The notes: a model not told the origin generated them from the sequence alone. 64,000 bases of DNA from a virus (IMGVR_UViG_3300009154_000029), one strand, 5' to 3'. Shown: positions 5,678-24,026, counted from the stretch's first letter. Translations and numbers: made by a program.

Positions 5678-5707
5678 AGTCTAAGCCCCGTAAGGCTTAG
5701 GCTTTTT
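5678..5707. terminator. Bidirectional terminator
   Basis: AAGTCTAAGCC-CCGTAA-GGCTTAGGCTTT between convergent genes. Confidence 0.8.
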
Positions 5708-8103: not shown

Positions 8104-9198
8104 ATGCCAAAATTTGAAACGATTTCTCAGCAGTTGTTCGACGCCAAGGCCAAAGAGGCTATGGACAGGACCCCAATCCGAAGGGAGTTCGGACTCAAGG
8201 ACATTGAGGTTATCAACAATGAGACCTTAGCCTTGGACGGAAGACACGTGCCGATGAACGGCGAGGCTTTTAAAGGACTCTGTAAGATTATCGGTTTGCC
8301 TGTTGGGTTTGACCGTACCTTCTCAGAAGCCTTCGGAGACAAAGCTCGTCAGCAACTCGTTAATAGGCTAAAGATTGCCAGTCAGGCCAAGGGTAACACC
8401 ACGGTTTCGTTGGTGCTTAACCCGGACACCAAAAAGATTGTTGGAGTTCAAGCAGACCCAAAGGATCTTATCTCAAATCAAACTTTCGTCAGCACTGCTA
8501 GCGATATCATTAATAAGTATGATTTGGAAGTCAATAACTTCTCAGTCAACAGCGATGGTGGGGTAGCTATCAACGCCTCATCTCCCAAGAACGTTTGGGG
8601 ATTGCAAGGGTTAAAGGACGAAGAGTTCTACGGTGGTATCTCTTTCACCAACTCACCTAACAGCGGGTTTCAAGTTAGTCCTTACCTTCAGCGTTTGGTT
8701 TGCGCCAACGGTATGATTGGTAGAAGCTTTGAGGAGTCAATGAAGCTCGGACAAATGGACGGGAAATCAATGGAGAAATTCTGGAAGGGACTTAACGAAT
8801 TAGCAGACAGAGGCTTTCGTCCGGAGTCGTTCGAGAATAAAGTGAGATTGGCTATGGAGACGAGAGCCTCATTGGCCGAAATGGAAAGTGCCATTTATGA
8901 CCTTAAGGCTTACTCCGACGCCGACACCAAGGAGTTGGAAGCTTGGATCCCTTTGGTTTCAACAAAGGCTAAATTCCACTTGGCAGGTATCGACACCAAC
9001 ACCTTCACGGGTAATCAAAGGAAGGGAGCTAAGACCGGAACTTCGGTTTGGGACTTAATCAACGGCATCACTCACTTCGCAACACACGACAACGGTTTCA
9101 AGATCGAAGACTATGACCGTCGTAAATTGCAGGTTGAAGCTTCAAGATTGTTGACTAAGAATTATGATATGGCGAACTTTGTAAAAAGTCCATTCTAA
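8104..9198 (+). CDS. DUF932-like protein
   Basis: QRLVCANGMI signature. Confidence 0.7.
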   Translation: MPKFETISQQLFDAKAKEAMDRTPIRREFGLKDIEVINNETLALDGRHVPMNGEAFKGLCKIIGLPVGFDRTFSEAFGDKARQQLVNRLKIASQAKGNTTVSLVLNPDTKKIVGVQADPKDLISNQTFVSTASDIINKYDLEVNNFSVNSDGGVAINASSPKNVWGLQGLKDEEFYGGISFTNSPNSGFQVSPYLQRLVCANGMIGRSFEESMKLGQMDGKSMEKFWKGLNELADRGFRPESFENKVRLAMETRASLAEMESAIYDLKAYSDADTKELEAWIPLVSTKAKFHLAGIDTNTFTGNQRKGAKTGTSVWDLINGITHFATHDNGFKIEDYDRRKLQVEASRLLTKNYDMANFVKSPF

Positions 9199-9220
9199 TA
9201 TTCCTCCCCTACATATACAG

Positions 9221-9246
9221 GTCCAGGTTATACTGGACTTTTTTTA
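9221..9246 (+). terminator. Rho-independent terminator
   Basis: GTCCAG-GTTATA-CTGGAC followed by T-tract; near-identical stems at 36570 and 41060. Confidence 0.8.
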
Positions 9247-9351
9247 TGCCCCCTGACATAGTATGATGGTAAGATAGTGTGCGTACGTGAGCCCGCAGGG
9301 AAAGTTCCAAATTTATTTTTTTATCCCAGCATTGGTTATTATATTTGGGAT

Positions 9352-9567
9352 ATGAAAAAGAATAAACCAGAATTTACAAAGGAGAAAATCTTAGACGTAG
9401 CCCAGCATTTGGGTGCAGCTAAGTTTATGACATGGGCAAACGATAACGATCTCCGTCCTGTAATAGAGAATTACGATGACGTGTTTGATCTTAATAGAGA
9501 CCGTGCTCTTATAGATGTTGATGGACATAAGCTTGAGTTCGAAGAGGGAAAGATAAAAATGGAATAA
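9352..9567 (+). CDS. Hypothetical protein, near-leaderless
   Basis: ATG 4 nt after TATATTTG. Confidence 0.75.
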   Translation: MKKNKPEFTKEKILDVAQHLGAAKFMTWANDNDLRPVIENYDDVFDLNRDRALIDVDGHKLEFEEGKIKME

Positions 9568-9627
9568 ACATTTTTATTCCTCGGGAAGATTTTCTACATT
9601 TGTCTTCTAAACCTAAAACACAGAACA

Positions 9628-10253
9628 TGAAAAAGATCTTTTTATTATCCTTGTTGGTCTCCGCCGGTTTCGGAGCACGCTCTCAGACACCGCAAGACAC
9701 CACACGCATTTCCCGTGACACCCTTACAGTTTCGGCCATCTTATATAATGGAGAAATCATTCCAATGGCATACCTGTCCACGGTTACCGTTACCTGCACT
9801 ATGACCGAGGAGCAAAGAAAAAGAATGGCAGAGTACACCGGACTTCGTAATGCAGTCTACCTAGTTTATCCATATGCTAGAACCGCCGGGGTTCTCTTAA
9901 ATGATATTAACCAGAAGTCAGAGGGTATGAGTAGAAGGGAAAGAAAATCATATGTAAGAAGTAGGGAAGCTGAGTTAAGAAAGGAATTCACCAGACCAAT
10001 TACAAAAATGTCTACGTTCCAGGGTAAAGTGTTAATGAAGCTTATAGCCAGAGAGACTGGGAATAGCTGCTTTGAGATCATAAAGGACTATAAAGGCGGC
10101 TTTATGGCAACCACTTATCAAACCGTTGCTTTCTTTTTTAAGACAAGCTTAAAGCAAGAATACGATGCTAGTGACGAGGATTCGGTTATGGAGAGATTGG
10201 TTAAAGAGGTACAACACTTATATGGTTATCAAGAAATAGCTAAAAAATCATAA
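9628..10253 (+). CDS. DUF4294-like secreted protein
   Basis: Signal peptide; VYPYA and FQGKVLMKLIARETG motifs typical of this Bacteroidota family. Confidence 0.7.
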
Positions 10254-10469
10254 ATGAAACATATACTCATAGCACTAGGCATAATGGCTGCAAGCCACTG
10301 TAAATGCCCAAAGCATTACAACAACCCATCCTTAGTAAGCGGGTACACCATTAAAATGGGCAGAACACCCTCACATAGAGATATAAAAAGATCAATGGAA
10401 GAGGCTGATAGAATATTTATAGTAAGCTCAGGGCCTGTCCGCATTACCGATTCATTGAATAGAAGATAA
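10254..10469 (+). CDS. Small secreted or lipoprotein-like protein
   Basis: Hydrophobic N-terminus followed by Cys. Confidence 0.6.
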   Translation: MKHILIALGIMAASHCKCPKHYNNPSLVSGYTIKMGRTPSHRDIKRSMEEADRIFIVSSGPVRITDSLNRR

Positions 10470-10716
10470 TTGTTTATAGGTGTTTGTTTTAGGTTCAGAG
10501 ACTTCCTTTTGGAAGTCTCTTTCTGTTTGCCCTAGCCAAAACTTAATCCGTGCAGCAGACCGGAACCGTTGGCAACGGTTTTCTGGATGTTCGAATTCTT
10601 GGACGTTTTAGATAGTATCATGGTAAGGTAGTATGCGCCCGCGGGCGAAAACTGGAATCGAAAAAATTGTTTTTCTCGAAAAGATGTATTATATTTGCTA
10701 TCTAAAACAAAACATC

Positions 10717-11013
10717 ATGCAAATAGCTTACACCTCACCAATTGGATTAGAAGTCTCTAAAGGAGACTGGGACGATTCAGAATGGACCGTTACTGGCAAT
10801 GCCCGTAAGGAGTTAACCATCAAAGAGTTTGACTCTGCTTACGAGTTTGAAGAGTTTATCCAGGAAAAGATTAATTGCAAAGGGATTACATTTGACAGCG
10901 AGTCTTGCCAGTTCTTTGCATATGCAAAGACCAAAGCCAGAGCAGTTAAGTTTGCAAAGGATATAGATAAGTACTTTGAAAAGGTCAGAACGACTATGGC
11001 CAAACTTTTATAA
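10717..11013 (+). CDS. Hypothetical protein
   Basis: ORF behind early promoter. Confidence 0.8.
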   Translation: MQIAYTSPIGLEVSKGDWDDSEWTVTGNARKELTIKEFDSAYEFEEFIQEKINCKGITFDSESCQFFAYAKTKARAVKFAKDIDKYFEKVRTTMAKLL

Positions 11014-11259
11014 TATTCGAAAAACCAAATGTGCGGGTGTGTTTAAGAGACTCTAATAAGAGTCTCTTTTTTTGTGTGGTAAGCAGGAAATAAAATTCCT
11101 GTTGGCCGCTTCAGAAACCGTCGCCAACGGTTCCGCGTGACGGCTCGATTCTCAGCGACACGTCTTCCAGACGTCTTTTGATGCTAACGAATCTTTTCCG
11201 GGCATAATAATTTTTTTCTACGGTAAATGCCTTACATTTGGATTCTAAAACAAAACACT

Positions 11260-11577
11260 ATGAGCCCAAATTCACAGATCTTCAACAGAACAGTAGAGAT
11301 GGTAACCACTCTAAGAGAAGCCAGATTCTTTGATGAGAATCCCTTAATTGACGAGGATCTTCTTATTAAAAAGATGATCATCACTATGCAAGAGAATTAC
11401 GCCAACACAGAGGAGATCGGCATTACCGAGAGGGACTTTCTAAAAATCGTAGATGAAGTTGCAGGGGAGTCATTAGAAAGTACTCTTATTAGTCTTTCTG
11501 AAAAAGGAGCTCTTGTTATGTCAGTGAACGAGAAGGGGGAGTTAGCTTACGGAAGAAATCCTAACTTTGAGTTCTAA
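11260..11577 (+). CDS. Hypothetical protein
   Basis: ORF behind early promoter. Confidence 0.8.
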   Translation: MSPNSQIFNRTVEMVTTLREARFFDENPLIDEDLLIKKMIITMQENYANTEEIGITERDFLKIVDEVAGESLESTLISLSEKGALVMSVNEKGELAYGRNPNFEF

Positions 11578-11649
11578 CGAATCTTTTCATCCGAAAATTT
11601 TTTTTACTGGAAATGGTTGTTTAATTTTACATTCTAAAACAAATACACC

Positions 11650-11808
11650 ATGTCAGAAGAAACAAACGAATTTCAAAAACAAATGAAAGAATTTATCGAC
11701 AAGCTTCAGGAAGCAATCAAGCAAGCCGAAATAGAAGCCAGAAGAGAAGCCCAAGTAACTCAAGTTATCGATGGCCAATACGGTAAGTATCTAATTCACC
11801 TAAACTAA
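11650..11808 (+). CDS. Small hypothetical protein (52 aa, not in ORF track)
   Basis: MSEETNEFQKQMKEF... behind early promoter. Confidence 0.7.
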   Translation: MSEETNEFQKQMKEFIDKLQEAIKQAEIEARREAQVTQVIDGQYGKYLIHLN

Positions 11809-11813
11809 ACCAC

Positions 11814-12185
11814 ATGAGATCATTCAAAGTTCGTTTCAATCTCGGACGCGGGGCCAACTACATGAAGTGGAAGGTTCAGCACCCCGACGGTAAGGTTGAG
11901 TACTTTAATCCTTCAGAGGTTCAGTTGATCCTGGAGGAGTGTACGCTTAAGAATCAAAAGGGCACGGCCACAAAGATCTTCAACGGCGGTACCAAAACCG
12001 TTTGCGCCTGGGTCTTGTGTAAGAGCTTCGAAATCAAAAGGAATAAGTTCATCAAGGACAAGCAGGAGAAAAGAGTCAGATATAACCCTCGCGTTTGCCC
12101 CCAATGGACCTACCAGGGTAACGTAGCTGATGGGCACTTCTTCGAAAGAATTTACAGTGTGGACTTCGGTCTATATGTTTTATAA
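11814..12185 (+). CDS. Conserved phage protein (KVRFNLGRG family)
   Basis: 123 aa ORF. Confidence 0.85.
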   Translation: MRSFKVRFNLGRGANYMKWKVQHPDGKVEYFNPSEVQLILEECTLKNQKGTATKIFNGGTKTVCAWVLCKSFEIKRNKFIKDKQEKRVRYNPRVCPQWTYQGNVADGHFFERIYSVDFGLYVL

Positions 12186-12435
12186 AATCTTCCCAAGGGA
12201 GAATCTTGGCCGGGTAAAGGTGCCATCCCTCGCAATCAGATTCGCAGAAGCCTCTTCTTTCAGAAGAGGTTTTTTGTTGGGCATCAAATTGGATTCGCCA
12301 CAGAGTAATACCGCTGCCAACGGTTCCGCGGCTGACATCCAGGTTTCTCCTCCTGGTTTCTGCTGGGAAGAATTTTAAAATTATTTTTTTATTTAAAAAG
12401 GTTGTTTTATATTTGCCTTCTAAAACAAACACACC

Positions 12436-12873
12436 ATGAAACCTAGATTCAAAGAAACCCGTAAATTCTTAAACTCAATTGGAACTATCAACTATGGCGG
12501 ATGTGGAGTTTCCGCTCTCGCGCTTTACGACTCTGCCAAAAGAGAAGGTCTTAAGCCCAAGATAGTTTATCTCTATTTTGCTTTTTTTGAAAGCAAGTCA
12601 ATGCTAAACAATAACAAATTCAAAGAGGGCAAAAGAAAAACAGCAGACGCATGCTCCCACATTCTCGTTAAAATCGGCAATCGTCTTTATGATTCATCAG
12701 GGGTTATTGGAAAATCAATGCTCTATATGTACAAGTTGGACGAGGAAATCACAAGGGAACACTTAGTTTCTTCAATCAACAATAAAGGGGTTTGGAACGA
12801 AACATTTGATAGAGAAAGATGGATCCCCCACATTCAAAAGTATTTCAAAAGAGGAACCACAATAAAAATCTAA
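12436..12873 (+). CDS. Hypothetical protein, possible papain-like fold
   Basis: GGCG...SHILV...LYDS Cys/His/Asp order; fold call is tentative. Confidence 0.6.
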   Translation: MKPRFKETRKFLNSIGTINYGGCGVSALALYDSAKREGLKPKIVYLYFAFFESKSMLNNNKFKEGKRKTADACSHILVKIGNRLYDSSGVIGKSMLYMYKLDEEITREHLVSSINNKGVWNETFDRERWIPHIQKYFKRGTTIKI

Positions 12874-12929
12874 AAGATTTTTTTATCCGGAAACAAAATC
12901 CTATATTTGCCTTCTAAAACAAAATAACC

Positions 12930-13139
12930 ATGAACACATTAGACATCAGTTACACCAAAAGACAACTCCAGAACATGGACACCATTGAACAGGCATGGGA
13001 CGGAGACGAATTAAAAGTTGATGACGGAGACGTTAGAATTTGGCTGGTCTTTCCAGAGAACAGACCTTACAACGGGGATTATGTAGTTGAAACCCGAATC
13101 AACGGAAGTTGGTATCAGAAAGCTTGCTACTTTGATTAA
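12930..13139 (+). CDS. Hypothetical protein
   Basis: ORF behind early promoter. Confidence 0.8.
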   Translation: MNTLDISYTKRQLQNMDTIEQAWDGDELKVDDGDVRIWLVFPENRPYNGDYVVETRINGSWYQKACYFD

Positions 13140-13359
13140 AAAGATTAGTTTGGTGGTTTGTTTTAAGAGTTCCATTTGGAACTCTTTTTTTTGCGTGCAA
13201 GTTTTTCCTCAAACTTTTCATACGTGCACGGAAATACCGTCGCCAACGGTTCGGTAGGGGTTTTAGGGTTTTTCAGCTGTTAGATTCCAAAACAGTATTC
13301 TGGAAAGATTTTTTTATCTCGTTGGCTTGTCTTATATTTGTAGACAAATAAACAAACCA

Positions 13360-13554
13360 ATGCCAGTTAAACTCTTACAAAAAGAAACAACCTATGAGGT
13401 TGAGTTCAACGATCAGAACTACAGTGTTACAGTAATGGAAGACTCTGTTAGTTTAGGGTATACCCAATACGACGTTTATGATGAGGAGGGAGAACTCGTC
13501 GAGGGTGACCTTGAGTTTGCTATTATAGAGTATTTAGAAACATCGTTACAGTAA
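13360..13554 (+). CDS. Hypothetical acidic protein
   Basis: Start reassigned behind promoter. Confidence 0.75.
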   Translation: MPVKLLQKETTYEVEFNDQNYSVTVMEDSVSLGYTQYDVYDEEGELVEGDLEFAIIEYLETSLQ

Positions 13555-13567
13555 TTAAAACCCCAGT

Positions 13568-14137
13568 ATGAAAAGAAGAGCAATCCTGTCGCTTAAAAAA
13601 ACGTTAATCATTTCTGCCATATGTGTCGTTGCCTTCTTATTGGCCACGGTTTACATGAATGTGACCGGAATAGATTCGCCAGCTATCATTTTAATGAACC
13701 CGTTTATTAGTGGATTTATTCATGTTAGCATAGAACACTTTGTTGGAAATATGTTAGGACTTTTCCTATTTCTCATTCCCGCGGTAAACGCAGGCTATAG
13801 AGTAAAAGAAATCTTCTGGATAACATTTCTTATCTCTATTGCGTATTTACCGATCTCCATTTTAGGTTTAACAGATCCTGCCGTCGGTATATCAGGGACT
13901 TGCATGTTTCTAACTAGTAGATCCTTGTTAAGTATTAAGAATAAGAAAATAGGGATTGTCCTGGTTTCATTAATAGCACTCAGCGAAATGCTACCTCTCT
14001 TTGATGCCGACGGTACCGCACATGGCGTGCATTTATTAGGTTTACTCTTAGGTTATCTCTCATTAAAATCTGGAGTAATGGAAAAGATCTTCCCAAAGTT
14101 TATCACTTCAAGAATAGCATGTCCAACGTTTAATTAA
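13568..14137 (+). CDS. Rhomboid-family intramembrane serine protease
   Basis: FIHVSIEHFVGNM, VGISG (catalytic Ser), AHGVHLLG (catalytic His), multiple TMs. Confidence 0.85.
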   Translation: MKRRAILSLKKTLIISAICVVAFLLATVYMNVTGIDSPAIILMNPFISGFIHVSIEHFVGNMLGLFLFLIPAVNAGYRVKEIFWITFLISIAYLPISILGLTDPAVGISGTCMFLTSRSLLSIKNKKIGIVLVSLIALSEMLPLFDADGTAHGVHLLGLLLGYLSLKSGVMEKIFPKFITSRIACPTFN

Positions 14138-14198
14138 CAAAAAGAATTTTTTTATCTAGACCAAAGTTTTTACATTTGTGTTAATAAAATAAAACAAG

Positions 14199-14339
14199 AT
14201 GAAAACTCTAAACCCCACTAAAGCCAAACGCAAGGATATGATCCAGGCTGGAGCCTATGATGGGAGATTCCGTCAAAGGATGGTTAAGGATAAAAAGAAA
14301 GAATCTAATAAAAGATGGGCGAGAATTAACTCATACTAA
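14199..14339 (+). CDS. Small basic protein (46 aa; YDGRFR...KDKKK)
   Basis: Hand-translated; behind early promoter. Confidence 0.7.
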   Translation: MKTLNPTKAKRKDMIQAGAYDGRFRQRMVKDKKKESNKRWARINSY

Positions 14340-14350
14340 AATTAAACACC

Positions 14351-14509
14351 ATGTCTATACTAAAATTTTCAGATGGCATTTCAATTGACACTTCAGGACC
14401 TCTTAGAGTTCTAGAATTATATGATGGTTTCTATGTTGTTGGAGAAGGTGTTTTAATTCCCGTTGAGTCAGAAGAGAGAGCGTTAGAGTTCATAGAAAAA
14501 AGAAAATAA
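14351..14509 (+). CDS. Small hypothetical protein (52 aa)
   Basis: Hand-translated; ACACC leader. Confidence 0.7.
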   Translation: MSILKFSDGISIDTSGPLRVLELYDGFYVVGEGVLIPVESEERALEFIEKRK

Positions 14510-14561
14510 TTTTTTTATCTGGAATCTATACATTACTTTTACCTTCTAAAACAAAACATCT

Positions 14562-14711
14562 ATGTCAAACTTAAATCACATCCAGGAGTTACAGTCAGCA
14601 ATTTCAAAATTGAAAAGAGAACCAGCCCAAAAATGGCACGGTAAGATCTCAAAGTCTTCAAAGGTTAGAATGATTGAGAAAAAGATCCAATCGTTAGTCA
14701 AGGGACACTAA
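14562..14711 (+). CDS. Small basic protein (49 aa)
   Basis: Hand-translated; behind early promoter. Confidence 0.7.
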   Translation: MSNLNHIQELQSAISKLKREPAQKWHGKISKSSKVRMIEKKIQSLVKGH

Positions 14712-14915
14712 AAATTAAAAAAACAAATTCAGGAAACCCAAACCAAAGTGTTTGGGTTTTTTGTTGCAGCTAATTGTAGAATTTTATAGTAGCACTAGTT
14801 AAAACCGTTGCCAACGGTTTCGCGACAGCCGCAGCGGAAAAGGTTTTTTCCTGTAGGATTTTTTTATCTGGAAAAGATTCCCTACTTTTACATTCTAAAC
14901 CAAAAACAATCTATT

Positions 14916-15143
14916 ATGAAACTATTTGAAATTTTAGTAAGCGGAAACGATCAAACCATCGCATTAGTAGTTGCAGCCGAAACCGAAGAGCGAGCTGAGG
15001 AACTTGTAACACAAGAGTATAGTCTCGATGACGAAGAGGCAAGGGAAGAGGATGAATTACACATCCATCGTTCGAGCGAGATTAGTAAAGCCTCTGCCAC
15101 TGAAGAGTTTGTACGTGAGATTTTCAACACAAACGAACTCTAA
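14916..15143 (+). CDS. Hypothetical acidic protein
   Basis: Start reassigned behind promoter. Confidence 0.8.
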   Translation: MKLFEILVSGNDQTIALVVAAETEERAEELVTQEYSLDDEEAREEDELHIHRSSEISKASATEEFVREIFNTNEL

Positions 15144-15226
15144 AAATTTCTAAAAAAGTTTAGCCTAGATTTTTTTATCTGGAAAAGGTTCTCTACTTTT
15201 ACATTCTAAACCAAAAACAATAAACT

Positions 15227-15673
15227 ATGGGCTGGTGGTCAAAAACAATTATGGGTGGAGACACCCCTCTCGATTTCAAATCCGAATTCTTTGACTTGGC
15301 TGGAGTAGACCAATTCAACGACAAAGGGTCAAAGGTCAAAAAATCCTTTGAGGAATCTCAGGATAAATTTATTAAAGGAATAGACAAAGTCCTGAAACGT
15401 TGGGGATGTGGTAAAACCGGTAGTGATTACTATAACGATCAGAAGAGTATTGGGTTTCAGGTTCTCGCGGTTCAGATGATGGCTCATGGCTGTGTTATCA
15501 AGGAGGAACTAAAGGACCTTATGTTAAAATGGATCGTTAAGGATGTTTGGGCAAGTCAAGACACCGAACGTGAGCAGAGAATTAAAGAATTAGAGGAAGC
15601 CCTTAAGAATTACAATAGCAAACCCACATCAATCAAGTCCGAGGGTCTACTTCAAAAAATGTTTGGAGAATAA
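15227..15673 (+). CDS. Conserved phage protein (MGWW..IMGGDTPLD family)
   Basis: 148 aa ORF behind promoter. Confidence 0.85.
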   Translation: MGWWSKTIMGGDTPLDFKSEFFDLAGVDQFNDKGSKVKKSFEESQDKFIKGIDKVLKRWGCGKTGSDYYNDQKSIGFQVLAVQMMAHGCVIKEELKDLMLKWIVKDVWASQDTEREQRIKELEEALKNYNSKPTSIKSEGLLQKMFGE

Positions 15674-15724
15674 TTTTTTATCCGGAAAGGGTTTATTAAA
15701 TTTGCCTTCTAAAACAATCAAACT

Positions 15725-15880
15725 ATGTTTACACTAGACTGCAACTACTACAACAAGACCTTTAATTCATTTGAGGATCTTATGAATGACGTTGTCGATT
15801 CCGGTATGGATCCCAATGTTGAAATCGTTTATAACGGAGAACCTTCAGGAGAATTTCCTATAGACTATATAGTCTTCTAG
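15725..15880 (+). CDS. Small acidic protein (51 aa)
   Basis: Hand-translated; behind promoter; repeat B follows the stop. Confidence 0.7.
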   Translation: MFTLDCNYYNKTFNSFEDLMNDVVDSGMDPNVEIVYNGEPSGEFPIDYIVF

Positions 15881-16134
15881 AATAGTATAGTACTAAGGTA
15901 CTCCCGCGCGAAGGGGTTTTTGTTAAAATTTAAAAAATCTATCTATGGATATACCAATCTTTAATTACGCAACCATCTCAGAAAACCTTGTATCATTTAC
16001 ATTTAGTCTTTCTACCGAAAGATATTGTACCGAGGGGTATAATGAACCTGACGTAACGTTAACAGATTTTTATTGGGAATAATTTTTTTATCTTGACTGG
16101 ATCTATTACTTTTACATTCTAAAACAAATACACC

Positions 16135-16524
16135 ATGGCAAAAAAAGTAGCTAAAAAAGCAGCACCCAAAAAAGTAAACAAATTTAGCCAGATGATGCTG
16201 GCGACAGAAACCGTTCAAAAGATGGACGGAATTCTAAAGGATGTTAAAGATTCAAAAAGCAGTGTCTTCTCAAAGGATGATGTGATAAAAATCATATCCG
16301 AGATAAAGGGCACGTTCAATCAGGAGTCTCCCACAGTATTGATTGACATGGAGGAGTTTATCGATGAAGTGGCTGAGAACATAGTTGATAATATCACGGA
16401 GATGGATTTAGATGATTTTGATCTGAGTCTGGATGGAACAGCGATTTGCATTGACCGGATAAAACTTGATTCTGACAGAGTAAGGGAGCTGGTTGAGGAA
16501 ATAACATCAAGCTATTTCGCTTAG
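16135..16524 (+). CDS. Hypothetical protein (basic N-terminus, acidic C-terminus)
   Basis: 129 aa ORF behind promoter. Confidence 0.85.
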   Translation: MAKKVAKKAAPKKVNKFSQMMLATETVQKMDGILKDVKDSKSSVFSKDDVIKIISEIKGTFNQESPTVLIDMEEFIDEVAENIVDNITEMDLDDFDLSLDGTAICIDRIKLDSDRVRELVEEITSSYFA

Positions 16525-16601
16525 CATTAACGAAAATAAATCCCCTAGGATTTTTTTATCTTAGGGGATTTCCTTATTTTTGGATTCTAAAACAAACTAA
16601 C

Positions 16602-16877
16602 ATGAAACTTTGCCACTTACACTTAAAAGATTCAATGGGTAACCCCAAAACTCTTATTTGCCGCGTTGAAGACGGGTCTGTCCATTATAATCTCTATGGA
16701 GGCCACGGTTCCAGCGGTATGGGATTATCGCTCAGCAATCTCCAATGCACGCTTCCCATAGAGAAACTATCCAAGAAAGAAACCAAAGAGGAATTCGTTA
16801 AGAGAATTGTTAGAGTGATTAACTACGAAAGTGTTTGTCGTGTGGTTAAACAAGTTGATTGCAATGTCACATTCTAA
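16602..16877 (+). CDS. Hypothetical protein
   Basis: 91 aa ORF behind promoter. Confidence 0.8.
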   Translation: MKLCHLHLKDSMGNPKTLICRVEDGSVHYNLYGGHGSSGMGLSLSNLQCTLPIEKLSKKETKEEFVKRIVRVINYESVCRVVKQVDCNVTF

Positions 16878-16896
16878 TCCTAAAAATAAAAAAAAT

Positions 16897-17043
16897 ATGG
16901 TACTAAGCAAATGCTGCGACGCAGAAGTAAAATTTGGAATGGTTGATGATCGTGTAGGTCATGGTATGCACGAGGAAACTGAATGCTCAAATTGTGGACA
17001 GCTTTTTCCAGATGTTTATGATGACGAAGAAGATGAAGAATAA
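16897..17043 (+). CDS. Small Cys-rich (Zn-ribbon) protein
   Basis: SKCC...CSNC. Confidence 0.65.
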   Translation: MVLSKCCDAEVKFGMVDDRVGHGMHEETECSNCGQLFPDVYDDEEDEE

Positions 17044-17100
17044 TTTTTTTTCCTCAACCAAATTCCTTACTTTTATAACCTAAACCTAAAAACAAAACAA

Positions 17101-17196
17101 ATGAAAAAAATCAAAGTTTTCTTTGCCAAACTGAACAGAAGCATTTTCGGAACTCAAGATGGGTATGTAATTCTGCCCACTAACTTTCCGCTGTAA
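17101..17196 (+). CDS. Mini-protein (31 aa)
   Basis: Hand-translated; own promoter and terminator. Confidence 0.55.
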   Translation: MKKIKVFFAKLNRSIFGTQDGYVILPTNFPL

Positions 17197-17401
17197 AACT
17201 CTTTATGGTGTGTTGTTAGAAAGGAACTCTTCGGAGTTCCTTTTTTGTTTCCCAGAGAATTTCCGTGTACGAATCCATAAACCGTCGCCAACGGTTCCGC
17301 GACAGCCGAATCGGAAAAGTTTTTTCCACTGTAGGATTTTTTCCAAAAAGATTTTTTTCTTTGGGAAAGATGTTTTACATTTGGATTCTAAACAACAAAC
17401 T

Positions 17402-17863
17402 ATGTCAAAAACAAACACTATTCCTGGAGCATTAAAGATTAAGGATAATCTTTGGATCAAGGGAAATAAGATAATCAGCTACGAAACAGTGGTTGGAAAA
17501 ATTGAGAATGATAGGATTCTGGAGTATGGGAAGTATAGCAGAACTACGACCAAACACATTTATGCAGTCTCAAGAATTATGGGACTTCCTGTTGTGTTTA
17601 AACCAACAAAACAGTTATTCTGGAAATTTGAAGTGGGTGTTAAATGCTCTTCTCCGTCTCCAAGAGTTTTCTCTAAGAATGCGTCAGAGGCAATTCTAAA
17701 GAGCATGAAAGAAGGGGAGGATATCGTTATGACTTTTGCTGCCATGAAATCCATTGGGAAAAAAGATATGGACCTGCTTAAGAAGTATATGGAGGATAAC
17801 GAAATTCCTTTCAACGTTTTCGAACTCGCTAAAAAATTCCACAAATTCAAAAACTTTGCATAG
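17402..17863 (+). CDS. Hypothetical protein
   Basis: Start reassigned behind promoter. Confidence 0.8.
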   Translation: MSKTNTIPGALKIKDNLWIKGNKIISYETVVGKIENDRILEYGKYSRTTTKHIYAVSRIMGLPVVFKPTKQLFWKFEVGVKCSSPSPRVFSKNASEAILKSMKEGEDIVMTFAAMKSIGKKDMDLLKKYMEDNEIPFNVFELAKKFHKFKNFA

Positions 17864-18135
17864 CAAAAACTCGGTGGTTGTTTTAAGAGTCCTGTTTTTC
17901 AGGACTCTTTTTTTGTGTGCGTGGTAAATCCTCAAGTAATCCAAGAAACCACCAGGAACCGTTGGCGACGGTATTGCCCGGAGACAGCATCGAAATATGT
18001 CAACTGGAATCTTCGGAAAGTGTAAAGCCTTGGATAGTATAGTACTAAGGTACTCCCGCGCGAAGGGATTTTTTGGTGTTTTTATTTTTTTATCCTAGGA
18101 AGAATCCTTAATTTTAACCTATAAAACAAAACACC

Positions 18136-18273
18136 ATGAAACAGTTATCAAAATTATTCATTGTCTCGTTAATCAAAGCCTTTTTAGCCTTTCAGGTTCT
18201 GACTGCAGTTGTTAGCATGTATTACATAACAAAGTTCTTTATTATGGTGCTCTCCTTTTTTCATTCCAATTAA
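18136..18273 (+). CDS. Small membrane peptide (45 aa)
   Basis: Hand-translated; hydrophobic; behind promoter. Confidence 0.6.
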   Translation: MKQLSKLFIVSLIKAFLAFQVLTAVVSMYYITKFFIMVLSFFHSN

Positions 18274-18324
18274 TTTTTTTATCCGGATAGGATTCTTTAT
18301 ATTTGTAATCTAAACCAAACCATC

Positions 18325-18672
18325 ATGAAATTCGAAATTGAAGAAATCCAGGTTAGAGCCTACGAAAGAAGATCTGGCGAAAAGTATAAGCATCTTCCTA
18401 AGATCTATATCTTCCCCGAGGGAGAGAGTGTATTGGAAGGACTTTATAATCGTCGTCAACGTCCATATAAATTCTTCAAACAGGAAATCGTTCCGCTGGT
18501 TATTGAAGACCTTAGTAAGAATCACAAAGGTATATTTGACCGGATTGGTGGGGACAAATGGGGATGGCGTCAAGACTGCGGATGTTCAATGTGTCCTTGT
18601 TCCCCCGGTTTCGTAGGTAGCAGCGAGTACGAACCCCACAACATTTACGTCACGGTTAGATTCTCAGAATAA
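18325..18672 (+). CDS. Phage protein with CGC..CPCSPGF motif
   Basis: 115 aa ORF behind promoter. Confidence 0.85.
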   Translation: MKFEIEEIQVRAYERRSGEKYKHLPKIYIFPEGESVLEGLYNRRQRPYKFFKQEIVPLVIEDLSKNHKGIFDRIGGDKWGWRQDCGCSMCPCSPGFVGSSEYEPHNIYVTVRFSE

Positions 18673-18723
18673 TTTTTTTATCCGGAGGGGATACCCTATA
18701 TTTGCATTCTAAAAATCAGCAGC

Positions 18724-18963
18724 ATGCTTAACTATAAAGTGCTGGGCGGAGACGTCCTCATCTTCAAGAACACCAACGATACTCTAACGATCTGTCGGGG
18801 CTCGCTCGGTAGTCCTATCATAGATCAGATAGAGATCAACGGCGAGGCCTTGGATTGGTTCCACGAGGTTCACCCCTTCGATAGGGAAGAGAACACCTTC
18901 ACCGAAGAGGAGCTTGATTATTTCATAGCTCACTATAACGAGATCGTTGGTCCAAGCTACTAA
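18724..18963 (+). CDS. Hypothetical protein
   Basis: 79 aa ORF behind promoter. Confidence 0.8.
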   Translation: MLNYKVLGGDVLIFKNTNDTLTICRGSLGSPIIDQIEINGEALDWFHEVHPFDREENTFTEEELDYFIAHYNEIVGPSY

Positions 18964-19034
18964 CGAATCTTTTAGTGAAAATATTTTTTTATTTGGTGGG
19001 AGAGCTGTATATTTGCCTTCTAAAACACACCACC

Positions 19035-19535
19035 ATGAAAAAGCAAATCGTTCGTTCTAATGTCAACCCCCTCCGTCTCCGCGAACTTTTCTTCGCCGGT
19101 AATTCAACCCTTACTTTTCAGAACACTGCGTCGGGCACTCACATGACCGTTAAGGTTAAGCAAGCCCGCGACAGACAAGACCGCAAGAAGAAGTTGCCCA
19201 TCTTCTTCGTTAACGTTTCGTTATTGGGCGACCAGACCACCGGTTTCATCTTCGGTGGCACTTTCTTTACCGACACCATGACTTTGAAGCTGAGCAAGCA
19301 CGCTCCCTCTAATTCTCAGCTCGGTCGAGTTATGGCTTGGTTATTCCACTCAGTGCAAAACCCCACGGTCCTAAGAGAGAAGCGAGTTTCACTTCTTCAC
19401 GAAGGTCGTTGCTGCCGTTGCGCACTTCCTCTCACTCACCCCGAGTCAATCAACAGCGGTTTCGGACCCGATTGCTTGGAAATGGTTTTAGCCCAAACCA
19501 AACTGAACGTTAAAGACTTCTTCGAGAAAATATAG
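19035..19535 (+). CDS. DUF6011-like Zn-finger protein
   Basis: GRCCRCALPLTHPESINSGFGPDC. Confidence 0.8.
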   Translation: MKKQIVRSNVNPLRLRELFFAGNSTLTFQNTASGTHMTVKVKQARDRQDRKKKLPIFFVNVSLLGDQTTGFIFGGTFFTDTMTLKLSKHAPSNSQLGRVMAWLFHSVQNPTVLREKRVSLLHEGRCCRCALPLTHPESINSGFGPDCLEMVLAQTKLNVKDFFEKI

Positions 19536-19657
19536 TTTTATGGTTGGTGAATACACAAAGGTCCTTTTCCAAGGACCTTTTTTGTTGCTGTAGATTTTTG
19601 TAGACATTTCGAAGCTGTCTCTGGGTAATACCGTTGCCAACGGTTCCGCGGCTGCAA

Positions 19658-19720
19658 ATCCAGGATAATGCCTGGATCAAACCTGGATATCACTGGATAA
19701 AACCCTGGATTATTTTTCCA
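19658..19720 (+). repeat. Helically phased CTGGAT repeats
   Basis: CTGGAT at 19672, 19683, 19693, 19705 and inverted ATCCAG at 19658. Confidence 0.75.
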
Positions 19721-19784
19721 GATGCTCTATCGCTAAACCGTGGGTTTATTTTTTTACTCCGTAACAACGGTTTACATTAGCGTC

Positions 19785-20198
19785 ATGAGTATATCTTACC
19801 TAGAAAGATTAAGAGAATCGCACAAGAAGGAAGCCGCTTACTTGAGAGGCATATATGGATCCAGCGGTTTACTGAATGGCATTTCCAAGCTATCTGATTT
19901 CTTTTATGGATTGGATAAGGACGGAGGAATAGAATGCTACGAAGAGCATACAGGAAACGTGGAAAGACGATTTGAAATTCGAACAGAAAGTCTGTATCTA
20001 TCTGTCTTCTGTACACCCCAATCATATCCCACGTTTTCACTTCATAGTAGAATCTACGAAAAGACAATAAATAAATTCAAAAAAATTGGACATGAGCACA
20101 TCCTCGAAACCTCGGACGTTGACGCTCTTATCGCTTATATCTACTTTCTAATTGGCTCCGTCGATCCCGAGAGAGGCAAATGGATTAAGCTTAGATAG
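19785..20198 (+). CDS. Hypothetical protein with C-terminal DPxxGKW motif
   Basis: Ends SVDPERGKWIKLR; compare 22443. Confidence 0.8.
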   Translation: MSISYLERLRESHKKEAAYLRGIYGSSGLLNGISKLSDFFYGLDKDGGIECYEEHTGNVERRFEIRTESLYLSVFCTPQSYPTFSLHSRIYEKTINKFKKIGHEHILETSDVDALIAYIYFLIGSVDPERGKWIKLR

Positions 20199-20266
20199 TA
20201 TAGTAGTAACATACTGCGCACGCGAGCGAAACCGGGGGCTAATTGATAACACATTAAATCTATAAC

Positions 20267-20605
20267 ATGGAAAAGATCCCATTTGAAAAAGCTTTAGAGA
20301 TGACCCAGTACCCGGAATCGAGTGAATGGTATGATTTTGGAAAGGGATCGGATGTGGGAGCTGACCAAATAAATGAGTGGATAAGGGAGGGACTTGACCG
20401 GATTAGAATGGAATATTTAAAGGGTGATGAATCTCCTTCTACATACACTATGAGCGGTAATACGCTCGTTGCTATCTTTGGCTTTACAGATGATGACGGT
20501 TCACACAATGTGAGCATATTTGTCTCTAAATCACACAAGAAGATGGAAATAGACAACTTAGAAACCCTCGTGGACGTGGAGTTTGTGGAAATAGATAAAG
20601 GCTAA
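20267..20605 (+). CDS. Hypothetical acidic protein
   Basis: 112 aa ORF. Confidence 0.8.
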   Translation: MEKIPFEKALEMTQYPESSEWYDFGKGSDVGADQINEWIREGLDRIRMEYLKGDESPSTYTMSGNTLVAIFGFTDDDGSHNVSIFVSKSHKKMEIDNLETLVDVEFVEIDKG

Positions 20606-20709
20606 GAAAAAGATTCTGCTCTATCTCTATTCCGCCGCCGGCGGTTCCGATTCCCCTAAATCCAGATTCAATCTAAGGAATCCAAGAGAATCACAGGGAA
20701 TGTAAACTC

Positions 20710-20883
20710 CTACTTATTATTCTCCGTCGGTTCTACGGTATGACCAATCGCTTCGATTTCTTTCAGCTTCTTCTCATACATCATTTTATAATGCTCTTTT
20801 GTCCAACCATCGTTTCCGTCGTGGTTCATTTCAAACTTAAATTGAAGCAACAGCTTTTCGTGTGTTATTAAATTTTCTTCCAT
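20710..20883 (-). CDS. Small hypothetical protein (57 aa)
   Basis: Hand-translated MEENLITHEKLLLQFKF...; GATAAATA upstream on minus strand. Confidence 0.6.
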   Translation of the reverse strand: MEENLITHEKLLLQFKFEMNHDGNDGWTKEHYKMMYEKKLKEIEAIGHTVEPTENNK

Positions 20884-20987
20884 ATCTTATTTATCGTTAA
20901 GAATTTGAAAGATTCCCGAAAAAGCCTTAATAAGATTTTTTTATTTAACCCGGAAGCCCTACATTTGCCTTCTAAACCCAACCCACT

Positions 20988-21131
20988 ATGACCAACAGAC
21001 AGCTCACCATCTTTAGTCTTCTTATCTTTTACTTTATTGTCATCTGTTTCCTATTAACAAGTTGCTCGAGATCTATTACCCCGTTCGAGGCCGCCAACGG
21101 TAAGGCGAGGTGTGGCAGATCCCTCCGCTGA
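20988..21131 (+). CDS. Small lipoprotein (47 aa)
   Basis: Signal peptide with lipobox LTSC; behind promoter. Confidence 0.7.
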   Translation: MTNRQLTIFSLLIFYFIVICFLLTSCSRSITPFEAANGKARCGRSLR

Positions 21132-21222
21132 AGGGATAAGGTATTCTCTAACGAAACTTTTAGAGGGAAAATTTTTTTTCTATCAGGAAGGGCTGTATAT
21201 TTGCCTTCTAAACAACAACACC

Positions 21223-21501
21223 ATGAGAATTATCAAATTAACCTACCAGGCCCCAGAATCACAAAAAACCGCTTTCGCCAACGCTATCGACAAGGTGATC
21301 GCACAACTTCCCAAGAACTCGCCAGACACAGTGGTTGTGAGAAAATCAGACACTGTGGCGTGTTTCGACCTCCGCTATATTGCGCCCATGCTTTGGGAGC
21401 GCACGATCCAGAAACTTGGTCTCATCGACGCCAAGGAGATCGGGCAGACCACAACTTGGGAGGGTGAGGGGAAAAAAATAACAAACATGCGTGGGAGGTA
21501 A
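21223..21501 (+). CDS. Hypothetical protein
   Basis: Start reassigned behind promoter. Confidence 0.8.
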   Translation: MRIIKLTYQAPESQKTAFANAIDKVIAQLPKNSPDTVVVRKSDTVACFDLRYIAPMLWERTIQKLGLIDAKEIGQTTTWEGEGKKITNMRGR

Positions 21502-21750
21502 CCCCCGCGCTTTCAACAGCTTCTCGCTATATCCCATCCATTCAGCTCCAAAAAAGACCGACCCCTATTTCGATAGGGGTTTTTCTTGCTCCCATAAAAA
21601 GCGGAAAAAAGTGGTTGGAAAAAGTTTTGTAGTAACATCCTAATACCGTCGCCAACGGTTCCGCCGCCCTAAATCCAGAAAAGATTTCCGGCGTTTTCTG
21701 AATCGCACTTCAGGAACTTGATATATAGTGCTATACATAAGAATCACGAA

Positions 21751-22254
21751 ATGAAAAACCTAAAACTATTTGAACAATTCAGTGAGGAGCTATTTGAAGC
21801 CGACGCTATTCCACTGCTTAGTGTTCTTGCTACTCCAAAAAACATCAACTTCTTCTCTGATCCGAAAGATCCGAAATCAATTCTTTTAGCGCAAAGGGAT
21901 GCTAGAGGTGCGGTGATACCAGGCACAACTCACAAATACACAATCAAAGGGGATTATGGTCTGATGGGTTTTGATGTGGCGCTAAGAAATGTCAAAAGAA
22001 ATCGTGTTGGAGATTTGTTAGCAGAGGCAAAGCCAACGGGTTTACTTGCTGGAAAGCTGATGGGGTTTCTTCCTAATAAGACCAAAAAAGGAAACGATTT
22101 AAAGACCAAGGATGGTTGGCTATACATTCAAGTTCCTGTAGGCAAGCTAAACACGTCAATAGCTGACCTGGTTAAGAATCAAGGAAAGAAAGCCAAGATC
22201 GATGCAGGAAGCGGTGTTACAGTCACATTAAAGTATCAAGGTCCAGTTGCTTAG
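21751..22254 (+). CDS. N-tagged (MKNLKLFEQF) hypothetical protein
   Basis: GATATATA at 21720; shared N-terminal tag. Confidence 0.85.
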   Translation: MKNLKLFEQFSEELFEADAIPLLSVLATPKNINFFSDPKDPKSILLAQRDARGAVIPGTTHKYTIKGDYGLMGFDVALRNVKRNRVGDLLAEAKPTGLLAGKLMGFLPNKTKKGNDLKTKDGWLYIQVPVGKLNTSIADLVKNQGKKAKIDAGSGVTVTLKYQGPVA

Positions 22255-22442
22255 ATCCAGTTAAAATCATAACAGCCCACAGATTCTGTGGGTTTTTTGT
22301 GTGTAGTGGTTTATGGTATCCAGTGTCTAAACCGTGGGTCCTGACATAGTATGATGGTAACATAGTGCGCACGCGGGCGGGAACAGGGGGGTATCTGGAA
22401 TCTTTTTTATTCTTCGGGTATAATCTCTATATTTAACATGTC

Positions 22443-22859
22443 ATGAACGAATTCACGCTAACACAAATGTTTAAGGATAAGTCTTGGAAAGGTCGCTATA
22501 AAGGGGTTCAGCACATTGAGGCCTTAATAGATGAAATCTGTGAGACCCACGGTATAACCCCTGAGACGGAAAAACACAATATTGGCTCCTGGGCGCTCAC
22601 AGAGAAGAGAACCATGAAAACCATCGTTCCCGAGACAGCCGCACTAAAAGGACTTTGGCTCATGTTTACCTACAGTGTACCAATTGGCTCTAGTCCAGAA
22701 CCGATGACTCTGCATGCTTTATCGCCTATCTCCGGAAACGTTGAATTAAAAACTGAGGATCCTTCCGTTATCATCTCTGTGCTAGCCACTCTAATAAGCG
22801 CCCACGATCCCGACCATGGCAAATGGGTAAACTGGCACAACCCCTCGCCCGGAAAATAA
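22443..22859 (+). CDS. Hypothetical protein with C-terminal DPxxGKW motif
   Basis: Ends AHDPDHGKWVNW. Confidence 0.8.
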   Translation: MNEFTLTQMFKDKSWKGRYKGVQHIEALIDEICETHGITPETEKHNIGSWALTEKRTMKTIVPETAALKGLWLMFTYSVPIGSSPEPMTLHALSPISGNVELKTEDPSVIISVLATLISAHDPDHGKWVNWHNPSPGK

Positions 22860-22939
22860 ATCTCCGAAAAGATTTTTTACTTTGGGTTTTTTCCCTTACA
22901 TTTGTGAAACAAATGCACATAACCCCTAAATCATCTACT

Positions 22940-23206
22940 ATGAGACTAATCCTCTTTATGCTACTCGTCCTCGGTTTCACGGCTTGCACTGTGACCAACC
23001 ACCCACACAACCCAGAAGGACACGGCTTCCTGGTAAGGGCCGGAAAGATCACACCTACGAGAATAAAGGGTGTCTTTATTGTGCAAGGCATGGACGTGAA
23101 CGGCAGGATCCTCGGTCCTCGCTTCAGAGCTAGATTCAAGGTTACACCACATGTTGGGGATTGTGTAATGGTCTGCAGGGATCAAATTATGGAACCAAAA
23201 TTCTAA
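22940..23206 (+). CDS. Lipoprotein
   Basis: MRLILFMLLVLGFTAC lipobox. Confidence 0.65.
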   Translation: MRLILFMLLVLGFTACTVTNHPHNPEGHGFLVRAGKITPTRIKGVFIVQGMDVNGRILGPRFRARFKVTPHVGDCVMVCRDQIMEPKF

Positions 23207-23377
23207 ACCAAAAACTCACCTATATGCAAACCGTCGCCGGCCTAGCCATTCTCGTCCTTTATCTGATATGTGGGCTTAGTCTCATACATCTAGTCATTGA
23301 GGACCTGAAAAAATAACACCAAAAGAATTTTTTTATTTCACGGGAAGGCTGTATATTTGCCTTCTAAACCACTTATC

Positions 23378-23677
23378 ATGAAATCAACTCTCTTCATTCT
23401 CGCTACGTTCTTCTTCGGCCTTGCGGGCCTGCTTTTCACTGGGACCCTCCAGGAGCTTATCCACTTCGGCGGTTCGGCCAGCGAGATAGCTTGCTTCTCC
23501 CTGGCTTTTGTGGGTGGTGCTATCTGTCTGGTAGGGGCCTTCCAAAAGGAGATCATAACCCCTCGCACAGTGGCGAATCCCTCACCCTCGTTCCACGCCC
23601 AGGACATAGAGATTGAGGCTGATCGCTGGGAGGAGAGAGAAGCCATAGTCAGGGAGATGCTGGAGATGGAGAACTAG
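23378..23677 (+). CDS. Membrane protein (2 TM)
   Basis: Last gene behind an early promoter. Confidence 0.8.
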   Translation: MKSTLFILATFFFGLAGLLFTGTLQELIHFGGSASEIACFSLAFVGGAICLVGAFQKEIITPRTVANPSPSFHAQDIEIEADRWEEREAIVREMLEMEN

Positions 23678-23832
23678 GAGTTTAACACCTTTCTAACGGA
23701 GTCCCTTTGATAGGGGCTTTTTTTGTGGGGAGGAGTTGGGAAGGGAAAAAGATTTTGCTCTAGCTCTATACCGCCGCCAGCGGTTCCGCTTCCAAATCTA
23801 TTTCTTGGTTTTATTGGCTTTCCTGAGAAATA

Positions 23833-23988
23833 GGGGCCCTCCAAAAAGATGGAGGGGGGTTAAAACAGGGTCCCTGGTAGGGGGGTTAAAGGCCCCTCGT
23901 GTATAGGGGGCTTCTAGGGGAGGGATCCGCTTAGGGGACCCCTAAATGGGCATTTTGGGGGAGGGGCTTTAGGGGTAAATCTAAGGGG
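23833..23988 (+). other. G-run tract with G-quadruplex potential
   Basis: 13 runs of 3-6 G; TAGGGG recurs about 6 times; non-coding. Confidence 0.8.
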
Positions 23989-24026
23989 CCTCGCGTATGA
24001 GGAACTTTAACGTTTCACTAAACGCC

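Follow-up and report, generated by a model that had tools for sequence, protein, structure and literature searches.

What reads a short palindrome that recurs between the early genes of a giant phage, and what does it do there? In the 64,000-nucleotide stretch IMGVR_UViG_3300009154_000029 (the window), which we take to come from an uncultured, very large (roughly 330-kb) lake or freshwater phage, the 15-bp palindrome ACCGT-N5-ACGGT, the core of an element that we call the box, is repeated in one region of small genes. The box is real, conserved and restricted to one clade, and it is positioned with respect to transcription terminators. We propose, with about even confidence and from sequence comparison, that it serves as an operator or 'stoperator'-like boundary site for a putative phage-specific factor, added to promoter/terminator cassettes that resemble those known as PeSLs.

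The palindrome gave nine exact matches in the window and none in 100 dinucleotide-preserving shuffles, and eight of the nine are intergenic (Table 1). When mismatches were allowed, degenerate copies were recovered at 12310 (ACCGC...ACGGT) and 23770 (ACCGC...GCGGT, a symmetric double change), bringing the total between 10,560 and 23,789 to ten copies, all of them non-coding in a zone with a non-coding fraction of 0.32 (P ~1e-5). The original prediction had listed eleven copies; the multi-copy array is real, but we count ten, the only further candidate being a lone half-site, AACCGT, at 22330. It had also placed every copy in intergenic DNA within 10.5-23.8 kb, which holds for the ten and not for the remaining exact match, at 6344-6358, which lies outside the range of the array and within a minus-strand transglycosylase-like open reading frame (ORF; 5707-6642). 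This match is not conserved at the homologous position in G001, a complete relative of 348,582 bp found by protein search in IMG/VR and colinear with the window in reverse orientation, and about 0.06 such matches are expected per window; we therefore set this match aside as chance or unrelated. Judged by tail and centre, eight copies are forward and two (10565 and 17958) are reverse, so that the orientation and the two reverse copies agree with the prediction, whereas its nine forward copies become eight. Its description of the centre (YGCCA), the tail (TCCGC) and the compensatory change at 23770 is confirmed. The CCCTA/TAGGG motifs that it noted behind the copies occur after some of them (AAATCCAG or TAGGG after 12310, 13236, 19630 and 21645) and are not a general feature.

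To place the boxes relative to transcription units, we used a purpose-made finder of intrinsic-terminator-like hairpins, which identified 19 on the plus strand of the window. Between 10.4 and 23.8 kb, a box lies 39-64 bp (mostly 44-51) past the stem at 10 of 11 terminators, compared with 0 of 8 outside this zone (Fisher P = 1.2e-4), and all ten boxes have a terminator upstream, in agreement with the distance of about 35-60 bp that had been claimed. The prediction had overlooked that this tight coupling is to terminators and not to promoters, and that the boxes are followed by strong promoters of the Bacteroidota type. The next −7 box lies at a widely varying distance from the box (73-151 bp); since the spacing to the terminator is tight, the box is placed relative to the terminator and not to the promoter. 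The promoter that follows may be of an early type, of a late type (GATATATA/TATATAAATA; GATATATAG at 21718) or of the repeat-B type described below. The spacer between terminator and box is not conserved, save for TTTTTGTKG directly past the hairpin and a loose T-patch. No consistent TAnnTTTG at the proper spacing was observed between terminator and box that could represent a hidden Bacteroidota promoter, nor was there a consistent structure behind each box indicating a small RNA or a second terminator.

To evaluate the conservation of the box, we scanned metagenomes with the 20-mer, which returned L001, L002, L007, L008, L011, L014 and L015. The first of these is the same phage (99.8% identical), L002 is a 12.3-kb fragment with about 73-77% identity and its cassettes in another order, and the other five are shorter related fragments. 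For five orthologous sites compared between the window and L002, identity is 71-95% in the 21-mer, 53-76% in the 45-nt flanks and 55% in random 45-mers, which indicates purifying selection on the 21-mer. The original prediction had made its case depend on the presence of the motif in close relatives, and there the box is indeed kept while the flanking DNA drifts. The coupling to terminators is also found in these relatives, with a box 35-51 bp after 8/8 plus-strand terminators of L002 and after 3/3 in L008.

The palindrome ACCGT-N5-ACGGT was not found near the homologous genes of G001. Instead, this phage carries a shifted form, (A/G)A(A/C)CG-NN-GTCAACGTTCCCGC, in which the right half and the tail are fixed, the left half is degenerate and the pairing of the arms is broken in most copies; the forms among the phages can be compared as CAACGGTTCCGC and CAACGTTCCCGC. 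A strict version of the G001 pattern gave 14 matches, 13 of which fall within 75,065-89,936, while the reversed control gave 0 (P = 2e-17). A looser scan gave about 18 forward sites in 74.2-96.9 kb, 15 of them clearly intergenic. The clustering that a whole-genome scan had been expected to reveal is therefore present, with 13/14 strict matches within 15 kb (~4% of the genome), but nothing ties the sites to a genome end, where they had been expected. The array ends with a site that is orthologous in the window and G001 and is followed in both by the same G-rich hinge, GGGGCCCTCC...GGAGGGGGGTTAAAA. In the G001 zone, a box was found 39-50 bp behind 9/15 terminators. When the distances from stem end to box centre were pooled for the window and G001, they fell into groups of 45-47 and 52-58 bp, plus one at 72, and the two groups hint at helical phasing. 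In total, 24/28 sites are oriented with the genes (P = 1.8e-4).

Outside this clade, the box was not detected above background. The window-type 20-mer gave 0 matches in IMG/VR, the G001-type 18-mer occurred there in multiple copies in G001 only, and the more distant L017 and L018 have no comparable box; a candidate 'palindrome' repeated in these two, ACAGG-N7-CCTGT, proved to be the T-arm of tRNA-like genes. In 401 genomes of Bacteroidota, which is itself an inferred host phylum, the palindrome was at background, with 4 single matches versus 6 for the reversed control, and for this reason a site of a host regulon was rejected. In a set with one genome per species (185,579 species), the 20-mer gave 10 scattered single matches. 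The one that was checked, on a contig of a Spirosoma metagenome-assembled genome (53% GC), has no similarity to the window or G001, and the other nine were taken for chance, judged from their taxa. Rfam has no family that matches the box, and the literature searched on palindromes behind terminators in phage early regions yielded nothing relevant; like the original prediction, which did not recognise it as a described element, we found no description of it in these sources.

The alignment of about 30 distinct copies, from the window, L002, L007, L008, L011, L014 and L015, revealed a near-palindromic box of 21-27 bp with the consensus (A/T)-ACCGT-Y-G-S-C-A-ACGGT-T-(C/T)-C-G-C-G. The four outer positions of the arms (ACCG/CGGT) are invariant, while the innermost pair (5/11) differs in about 5/27 aligned copies; G7 and C9, which mirror each other across the central base, are also invariant, and positions 6 and 10 are free to vary. 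The downstream flank is GC-rich and conserved (the TCCGCG tail), the upstream flank is A/T-rich and weakly symmetric to it, and nothing is conserved past ~12 nt downstream. The box is best read as two small AAC(S)GTT palindromes whose centres, 9.5-10 bp apart, face the same side of the helix; of the two half-sites, the one closer to the next gene is stronger and better conserved. Throughout the alignment, the arms are conserved as sequence, with no covariation. The hairpins that the box could form are weak, −3 to −7.7 kcal/mol for the window type and −0.6 to −4 in G001, and none is better than shuffled sequence. Hairpin pairing seems dispensable, because the arms of the G001 copies no longer pair while the sequence blocks stay fixed. 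Thus, the stable extruded hairpin of N4-type early promoters, with its 5-7 bp stem, 3-nt loop and conserved structure, is not found here. An N4-like G-T wobble on the template strand was also considered; positions 6 and 10 fit it in the window, but the L002 variants (G...A, T...C) contradict it.

The half-sites one helical turn apart, the conservation at the level of sequence, the drift between lineages and the regulon-like clustering all point to the site of a phage-specific DNA-binding protein. A phage-specific factor fits best since the box differs between related phages and is at background level in Bacteroidota. In turn, the presence of one site per operon boundary, at a set distance past the terminator and mostly co-oriented, suggests an action on the boundaries of transcription units and not on promoter initiation. 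The putative protein would be sequence-specific for double-stranded DNA, probably phage-encoded or delivered with the virion, and it would act as a dimer, or as two tandem subunits or domains, reading both half-sites. Its regulon would comprise about 10 to 20 sites in the small early-cassette zone, one per operon boundary, with the box centre 45-58 bp past the stem. Bound at these sites, it could act in one or more of three ways: it could form a polar roadblock or insulator against polymerases that have passed the terminator, it could switch off the entire early zone at a later stage of infection, as L5 stoperators do, or it could be a bridge that packs the zone into one domain. A more specific possibility, which we consider doubtful, is that the box is the protein half of a two-part terminator, in which the hairpin and T-run are followed, one to two helical turns on, by an in-phase oriented site whose protein would make termination at the early boundaries complete and switchable. 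Through such sites, the phage could also close down the entire early zone in one step.

Several observations weigh against an operator or stoperator-like function. The box begins ~30-40 bp past the end of the T-run, beyond the reach of the polymerase footprint, a distance that is long for a simple roadblock. In G001, 9/18 sites have no detected terminator within ~50 bp, and five are crowded into one 600-bp non-coding stretch. The orientation bias could stem from the duplication of co-oriented cassettes and not from selection, and orientation may not be strictly required, given that the two reversed copies of the window stand where the equivalent G001 context has forward copies. Finally, a Pfam search of about 34 early-zone ORFs revealed no DNA-binding domain, and no HTH_3, HU/IHF or ParB_N domain was detectable in G001; Pfam often misses small phage regulators. 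Three conserved early proteins were evaluated as candidate binders, but their matches (DUF6011, an unnamed phage family with a weak Imm51 lead, and DUF8033) do not suggest DNA binding.

The box could alternatively work at the level of RNA, folding in the read-through transcript into a 5-bp stem with a 5-nt loop that is either processed, as at the RNase III sites separating the early genes of T7, or acts in antitermination in the manner of boxB. The 5+5+5 geometry resembles that of lambda boxB, the sites share the orientation of the genes in 24 of 28 cases, the double change in the copy at 23770 preserves pairing, and the changes in two copies are compatible with U-G pairs. We nevertheless regard this explanation as unlikely, since the hairpins are weak and no better than shuffled, most G001 copies are unpaired while their sequence blocks are fixed, two copies (12310 and L011:1009) have C-A mismatches on the sense strand, and the would-be loop contains the invariant, symmetric G7 and C9. 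Moreover, a box between a strong terminator and a promoter is expected to be rarely transcribed, and Rfam offers no match. Nor does the arrangement resemble a lambda-type nut site, which lies in a transcribed leader with its promoter upstream and the terminators downstream; the boxes are past a terminator and upstream of recognisable promoters.

We consider it quite improbable that the box is a single-block promoter, read by host polymerase with a phage sigma factor or by an unrecognised phage RNA polymerase. Each unit would then have, ahead of its host-type promoter, another that is specific to the phage, just as middle promoters of T4 are found upstream of early genes. The box is indeed contiguous (~21-27 bp), oriented, intergenic and upstream of genes, and it differs between related phages, as phage promoters do. 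G001 also encodes three proteins with sigma-70 region 2 (70285-71199, which is L056:10285-11199; 327870-328076; and 320489-320668), one of which is full length (regions 1.2, 2, 3 and 4) and adjoins the early zone. The full-length sigma has no homologue in the 64-kb window by tblastn, and a two-component operon stands at the syntenic place. Yet no −10-like block is conserved downstream of the box at a set spacing, two of the copies in the window and several in G001 point back into the terminator, the spacing is fixed to the upstream terminator and not to the gene, and near-palindromy is unexpected in a promoter. As for a phage polymerase, such as the giant virion enzyme of N4-type phages, no beta subunit of a multisubunit RNA polymerase was detectable in G001, and no T7-like polymerase (PF00940) was found, in a search whose control was silent. 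The largest ORF of G001 (at least 2,599 aa, ending at the contig end) is a collagen-like tail fibre. Three other large proteins (1,344-1,848 aa) have no informative match and could be counted in favour of a polymerase: the one of 1,344 aa has no match at all, and two to three (up to 1,848 aa) match PHROG families of unknown function. A reading of the box as an extracytoplasmic-function sigma promoter (AAC-N17-CGAC) was discarded, given that only two copies fit and the left AAC is not conserved.

It seems just as improbable that the boxes are recombination sites, that is, crossover points at which cassettes are shuffled, inverted or excised, either by a site-specific enzyme or through short identities in homologous recombination, as in PeSL mini-circles. 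The order of the cassettes is heavily shuffled among the window, L002 and G001; a segment in L011 is bracketed by two '12310-type' box contexts; a four-gene cassette is flanked by the copies at 17958 and 19630, which make up an inverted repeat of ~60 bp; and L002:6297 matches its window counterpart on the right flank only. Against this, neither tyrosine nor serine recombinases (PF00589, PF00239) were detected in G001, in searches whose controls responded. The one junction that was mapped (window 11017 joined to 15169 in L002), the other intergenic regions being too diverged for breakpoint mapping, falls in the promoter/leader repeat (50-85 nt), where homologous exchange would find a much better substrate. 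In addition, recombination explains neither the fixed distance to the terminator nor the selection on a specific 21-mer.

A parS-type centromere, or a compaction or ejection-loading array that organises DNA rather than transcription, as first suggested for this locus, is very improbable: the sites are palindromic, as parS sites (~16 bp) are, multi-copy and confined to about 4% of the genome, and the window array ends at a G-rich tract, but no ParB N-terminal domain (PF02195) was detected in G001 although control genomes responded, and the sites are strictly intergenic and tied to terminators, unlike typical parS, matS and Noc-type sites. From the original proposal of an oriented, dimer-binding site, the geometry survives, as a dimer or tandem arrangement with half-sites ~10 bp apart; its analogies with recombinase, parS and ejection sites are not supported, given the lack of a detectable recombinase or ParB N-terminal domain in G001 and a junction that lies outside the palindrome.

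Table 1. Box copies in the early zone of the window and the eleven terminator stems of the zone (all on the plus strand); distances run from the terminator stem.
Feature	Position	Strand	Palindrome start (match)	Sequence	Upstream terminator stem	Distance (bp)	Remarks
Box copy 1	10560..10579	-	10565 (exact)	top strand ACCGTTGGCAACGGT, minus-strand tail TCCGG	10497-10520	45	orthologue L002:670
Box copy 2	11117..11136	+	11117 (exact)	ACCGTCGCCAACGGT + TCCGC	11045-11068	49	
Box copy 3	12310..12329	+	12310 (degenerate)	ACCGCTGCCAACGGT + TCCGC	12249-12271	39	one arm change; orthologues L002:4908 and L011:60, flanks diverged there
Box copy 4	13236..13255	+	13236 (exact)	ACCGTCGCCAACGGT + TCGGT	13165-13186	50	
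Box copy 5	14804..14823	+	14804 (exact)	ACCGTTGCCAACGGT + TTCGC	14735-14758	46	perfect 7+1+7 palindrome
Box copy 6	17281..17300	+	17281 (exact)	ACCGTCGCCAACGGT + TCCGC	17220-17243	38-44	
Box copy 7	17953..17972	-	17958 (exact)		17885-17909	49	~45-nt flank in common with copy 8; inverted-repeat pair round the 17958-19630 cassette
Box copy 8	19630..19649	+	19630 (exact)	ACCGTTGCCAACGGT + TCCGC	19558-19579	51	orthologue L002:10667
Box copy 9	21645..21664	+	21645 (exact)	ACCGTCGCCAACGGT + TCCGC	21561-21580	64-65	next promoter late-type GATATATAG, not early
Lone half-site	22330..22335	+		AACCGT	22274-22294	36	sole zone terminator without a full box
Box copy 10	23770..23789	+	23770 (degenerate)	ACCGCCGCCAGCGGT + TCCGC	23699-23719	51	last of the array; symmetric double change; G-rich hinge next

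The zone in which the boxes lie (~1-23.7 kb) consists of small plus-strand ORFan genes, each with a highly conserved promoter and leader of ~60 nt, ATTTTTTTATC...TA(c/t)(a/t)TTTG...TCTAAAACAAAAC-ATG, of which there are about 23 distinct copies in 1-23 kb (e.g. 12408, 14883, 16575 and 17376). These promoters have no Shine-Dalgarno sequence and match TAnnTTTG, which we take to be the −7 consensus of Bacteroidota; we therefore infer that the host belongs to this phylum. The upstream T-run of the promoter is often bracketed by a short gene-specific inverted repeat, as at 16538-16571, where a 14-bp stem overlaps the T-run. With stem-loops overlapping promoters and the gene order shuffled, this architecture corresponds to the PeSL cassettes of T4-type phages, and the surroundings of the boxes show the promoters, the 11 zone terminators and the shuffling of cassettes relative to L002 and G001 that are expected of them.

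A comparison of window 9200-24000 with L002 and G001 shows that the early cassettes have been heavily rearranged among these relatives, with gains and losses. For 6/34 early ORFs only is a homologue present in G001, and L002 fuses the homologues of window 10717-11013 and 15227-15673 directly, at the promoter repeat. The product of 10717-11013 (98 aa) is the most widely conserved early protein (L002, L007, L011, L014, G001 and L018); its nearest relatives are unnamed phage clusters, one of which points weakly to the Imm51 family of immunity proteins (28% of its members). The best-conserved block of the zone, with ~68% nucleotide identity to G001 over 2.2 kb, comprises a RecA/RadA-like ATPase (7010-8035; E = 6e-20 to RecA chains) and its 364-aa neighbour (8104-9198), for which we found no relative of known structure. 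The window also bears tail-fibre and lysin genes and a tRNA array.

A second repeat, repeat B (CTGACATAGTATGATGGTAAGATAGTGTGCG...), is located at 9252-9290, 10612-10660, 18030-18075 and 22340-22385. It resembles a Proteobacteria sigma-70-type promoter (TTGACA-N16/17-TAGTAT) and has a short GC hairpin and a T-run behind it; a full-length sigma factor of the phage itself might use it as a promoter, from which a tiny hairpin RNA would be made. Repeat B follows both reversed boxes in the window and forward boxes in G001. The regions 17913-17972 and 19585-19649 contain the boxes at 17958 (reverse) and 19630 (forward) with ~45 nt of extra common flank, forming the inverted repeat of ~60 bp mentioned above (duplex −50 kcal/mol), and the four-gene segment between them is a candidate for inversion. 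Complementarity between leaders and trailers around the cassettes was considered and rejected: cognate pairs have a mean of −22.4 kcal/mol, compared with −19.5 +/- 4.4 for non-cognate pairs, and only 2/9 pairs stand out. The strongest of these is the extended inverted repeat 17958/19630, while single-site pairing is no better than background.

The 600-bp non-coding stretch of G001 that contains five boxes, in both orientations, lies at 272008-272620 in reverse-complement coordinates (within L016). There, the boxes are interleaved with CATCTGGA(A/T) and CTGTTGCTGT direct repeats, and the stretch is rich in ATCTGGA repeats; it may represent a hub of regulation or a region resembling an origin. 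In the window, nothing comparable precedes the orthologous 51-aa gene at 15725.

How giant phages of Bacteroidota regulate their genes has hardly been studied, and the box provides a sharply defined cis-signal (27 bp, about 10-20 copies, conserved spacing to the terminator) that could serve directly as bait for a phage regulator. If its protein acts on polymerases at terminators, the 'stoperator' idea would extend from temperate actinophages to lytic giant phages, and densely packed early cassettes would have a new way of being insulated. Should the two-part terminator be true, these would be the first factor-reinforced intrinsic terminators in a phage. Even as an ordinary operator only, the box would still define the early regulon of this phage clade and mark out its limits.

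Among known systems, the RK2 KorB operators (OB) and the C1 operators of phage P1 are similar to the boxes in that a dozen or more copies, spread over a defined part of the replicon at a variable distance upstream of promoters, form one global regulon. KorB is a ParB-family protein, of a kind whose N-terminal domain was not found in G001, and the P1 operators are asymmetric 17-mers at promoters; neither set is placed relative to terminators. An arrangement like that of the box is also found in Reb1 and TTF-I, which bind behind a T-rich release element, and in mTERF, where an oriented protein site at a set distance makes termination efficient and polar. These belong to another domain of life and other polymerases, and their Reb1/TTF-I-type spacing is about 10-20 bp, unlike the ~30-40 bp between T-run and box. 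We know of no roadblock-assisted equivalent at the intrinsic terminators of bacteria or phages.

The PeSL cassettes of T4-type phages (PMC2839356) likewise consist of small ORFan genes in a plastic zone, with a strong host-type early promoter, a terminator stem-loop and a shuffled order, and some stem-loops of the window overlap the upstream T-run of the promoter (e.g. 16538-16571) as in PeSLs. In contrast, PeSLs comprise promoter and stem-loop only, with no separate palindromic box between terminator and promoter (PMC2839356), and the promoters described here differ from theirs in being of the Bacteroidota type (TAnnTTTG) and lacking a Shine-Dalgarno sequence. The closest documented mechanism is the stoperator system of L5-like mycobacteriophages, in which more than 20 oriented intergenic sites, bound by the repressor, stop the elongating polymerase, and inversion abolishes function (PMC9283540). 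As with the stoperators of cluster A mycobacteriophages and their L5 gp71-type repressor, many short conserved sites lie in short intergenic spaces, with an orientation that tracks transcription; stoperators are away from promoters, act on the elongating polymerase at gene boundaries, and drift between phages together with the repressor (PMC9283540). The boxes are similarly multi-copy and non-coding (10/10), co-oriented (24/28) and off promoters (73-151 bp to the −7 box). No repressor homologue of the L5 type was identified here, and the binding of the box and any arrest of elongation are putative. Stoperators differ in that they are 13-bp, fully asymmetric, monomer-bound sites, spread genome-wide in a temperate phage, that silence the prophage, whereas the box is a near-palindrome of 21-27 bp, present only in the early zone of an apparently lytic large myovirus (no integrase was detected in G001) and at a set distance behind intrinsic terminators. 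With these differences, the box falls within known kinds of element, namely multi-copy phage operators or stoperators in PeSL-like cassettes.

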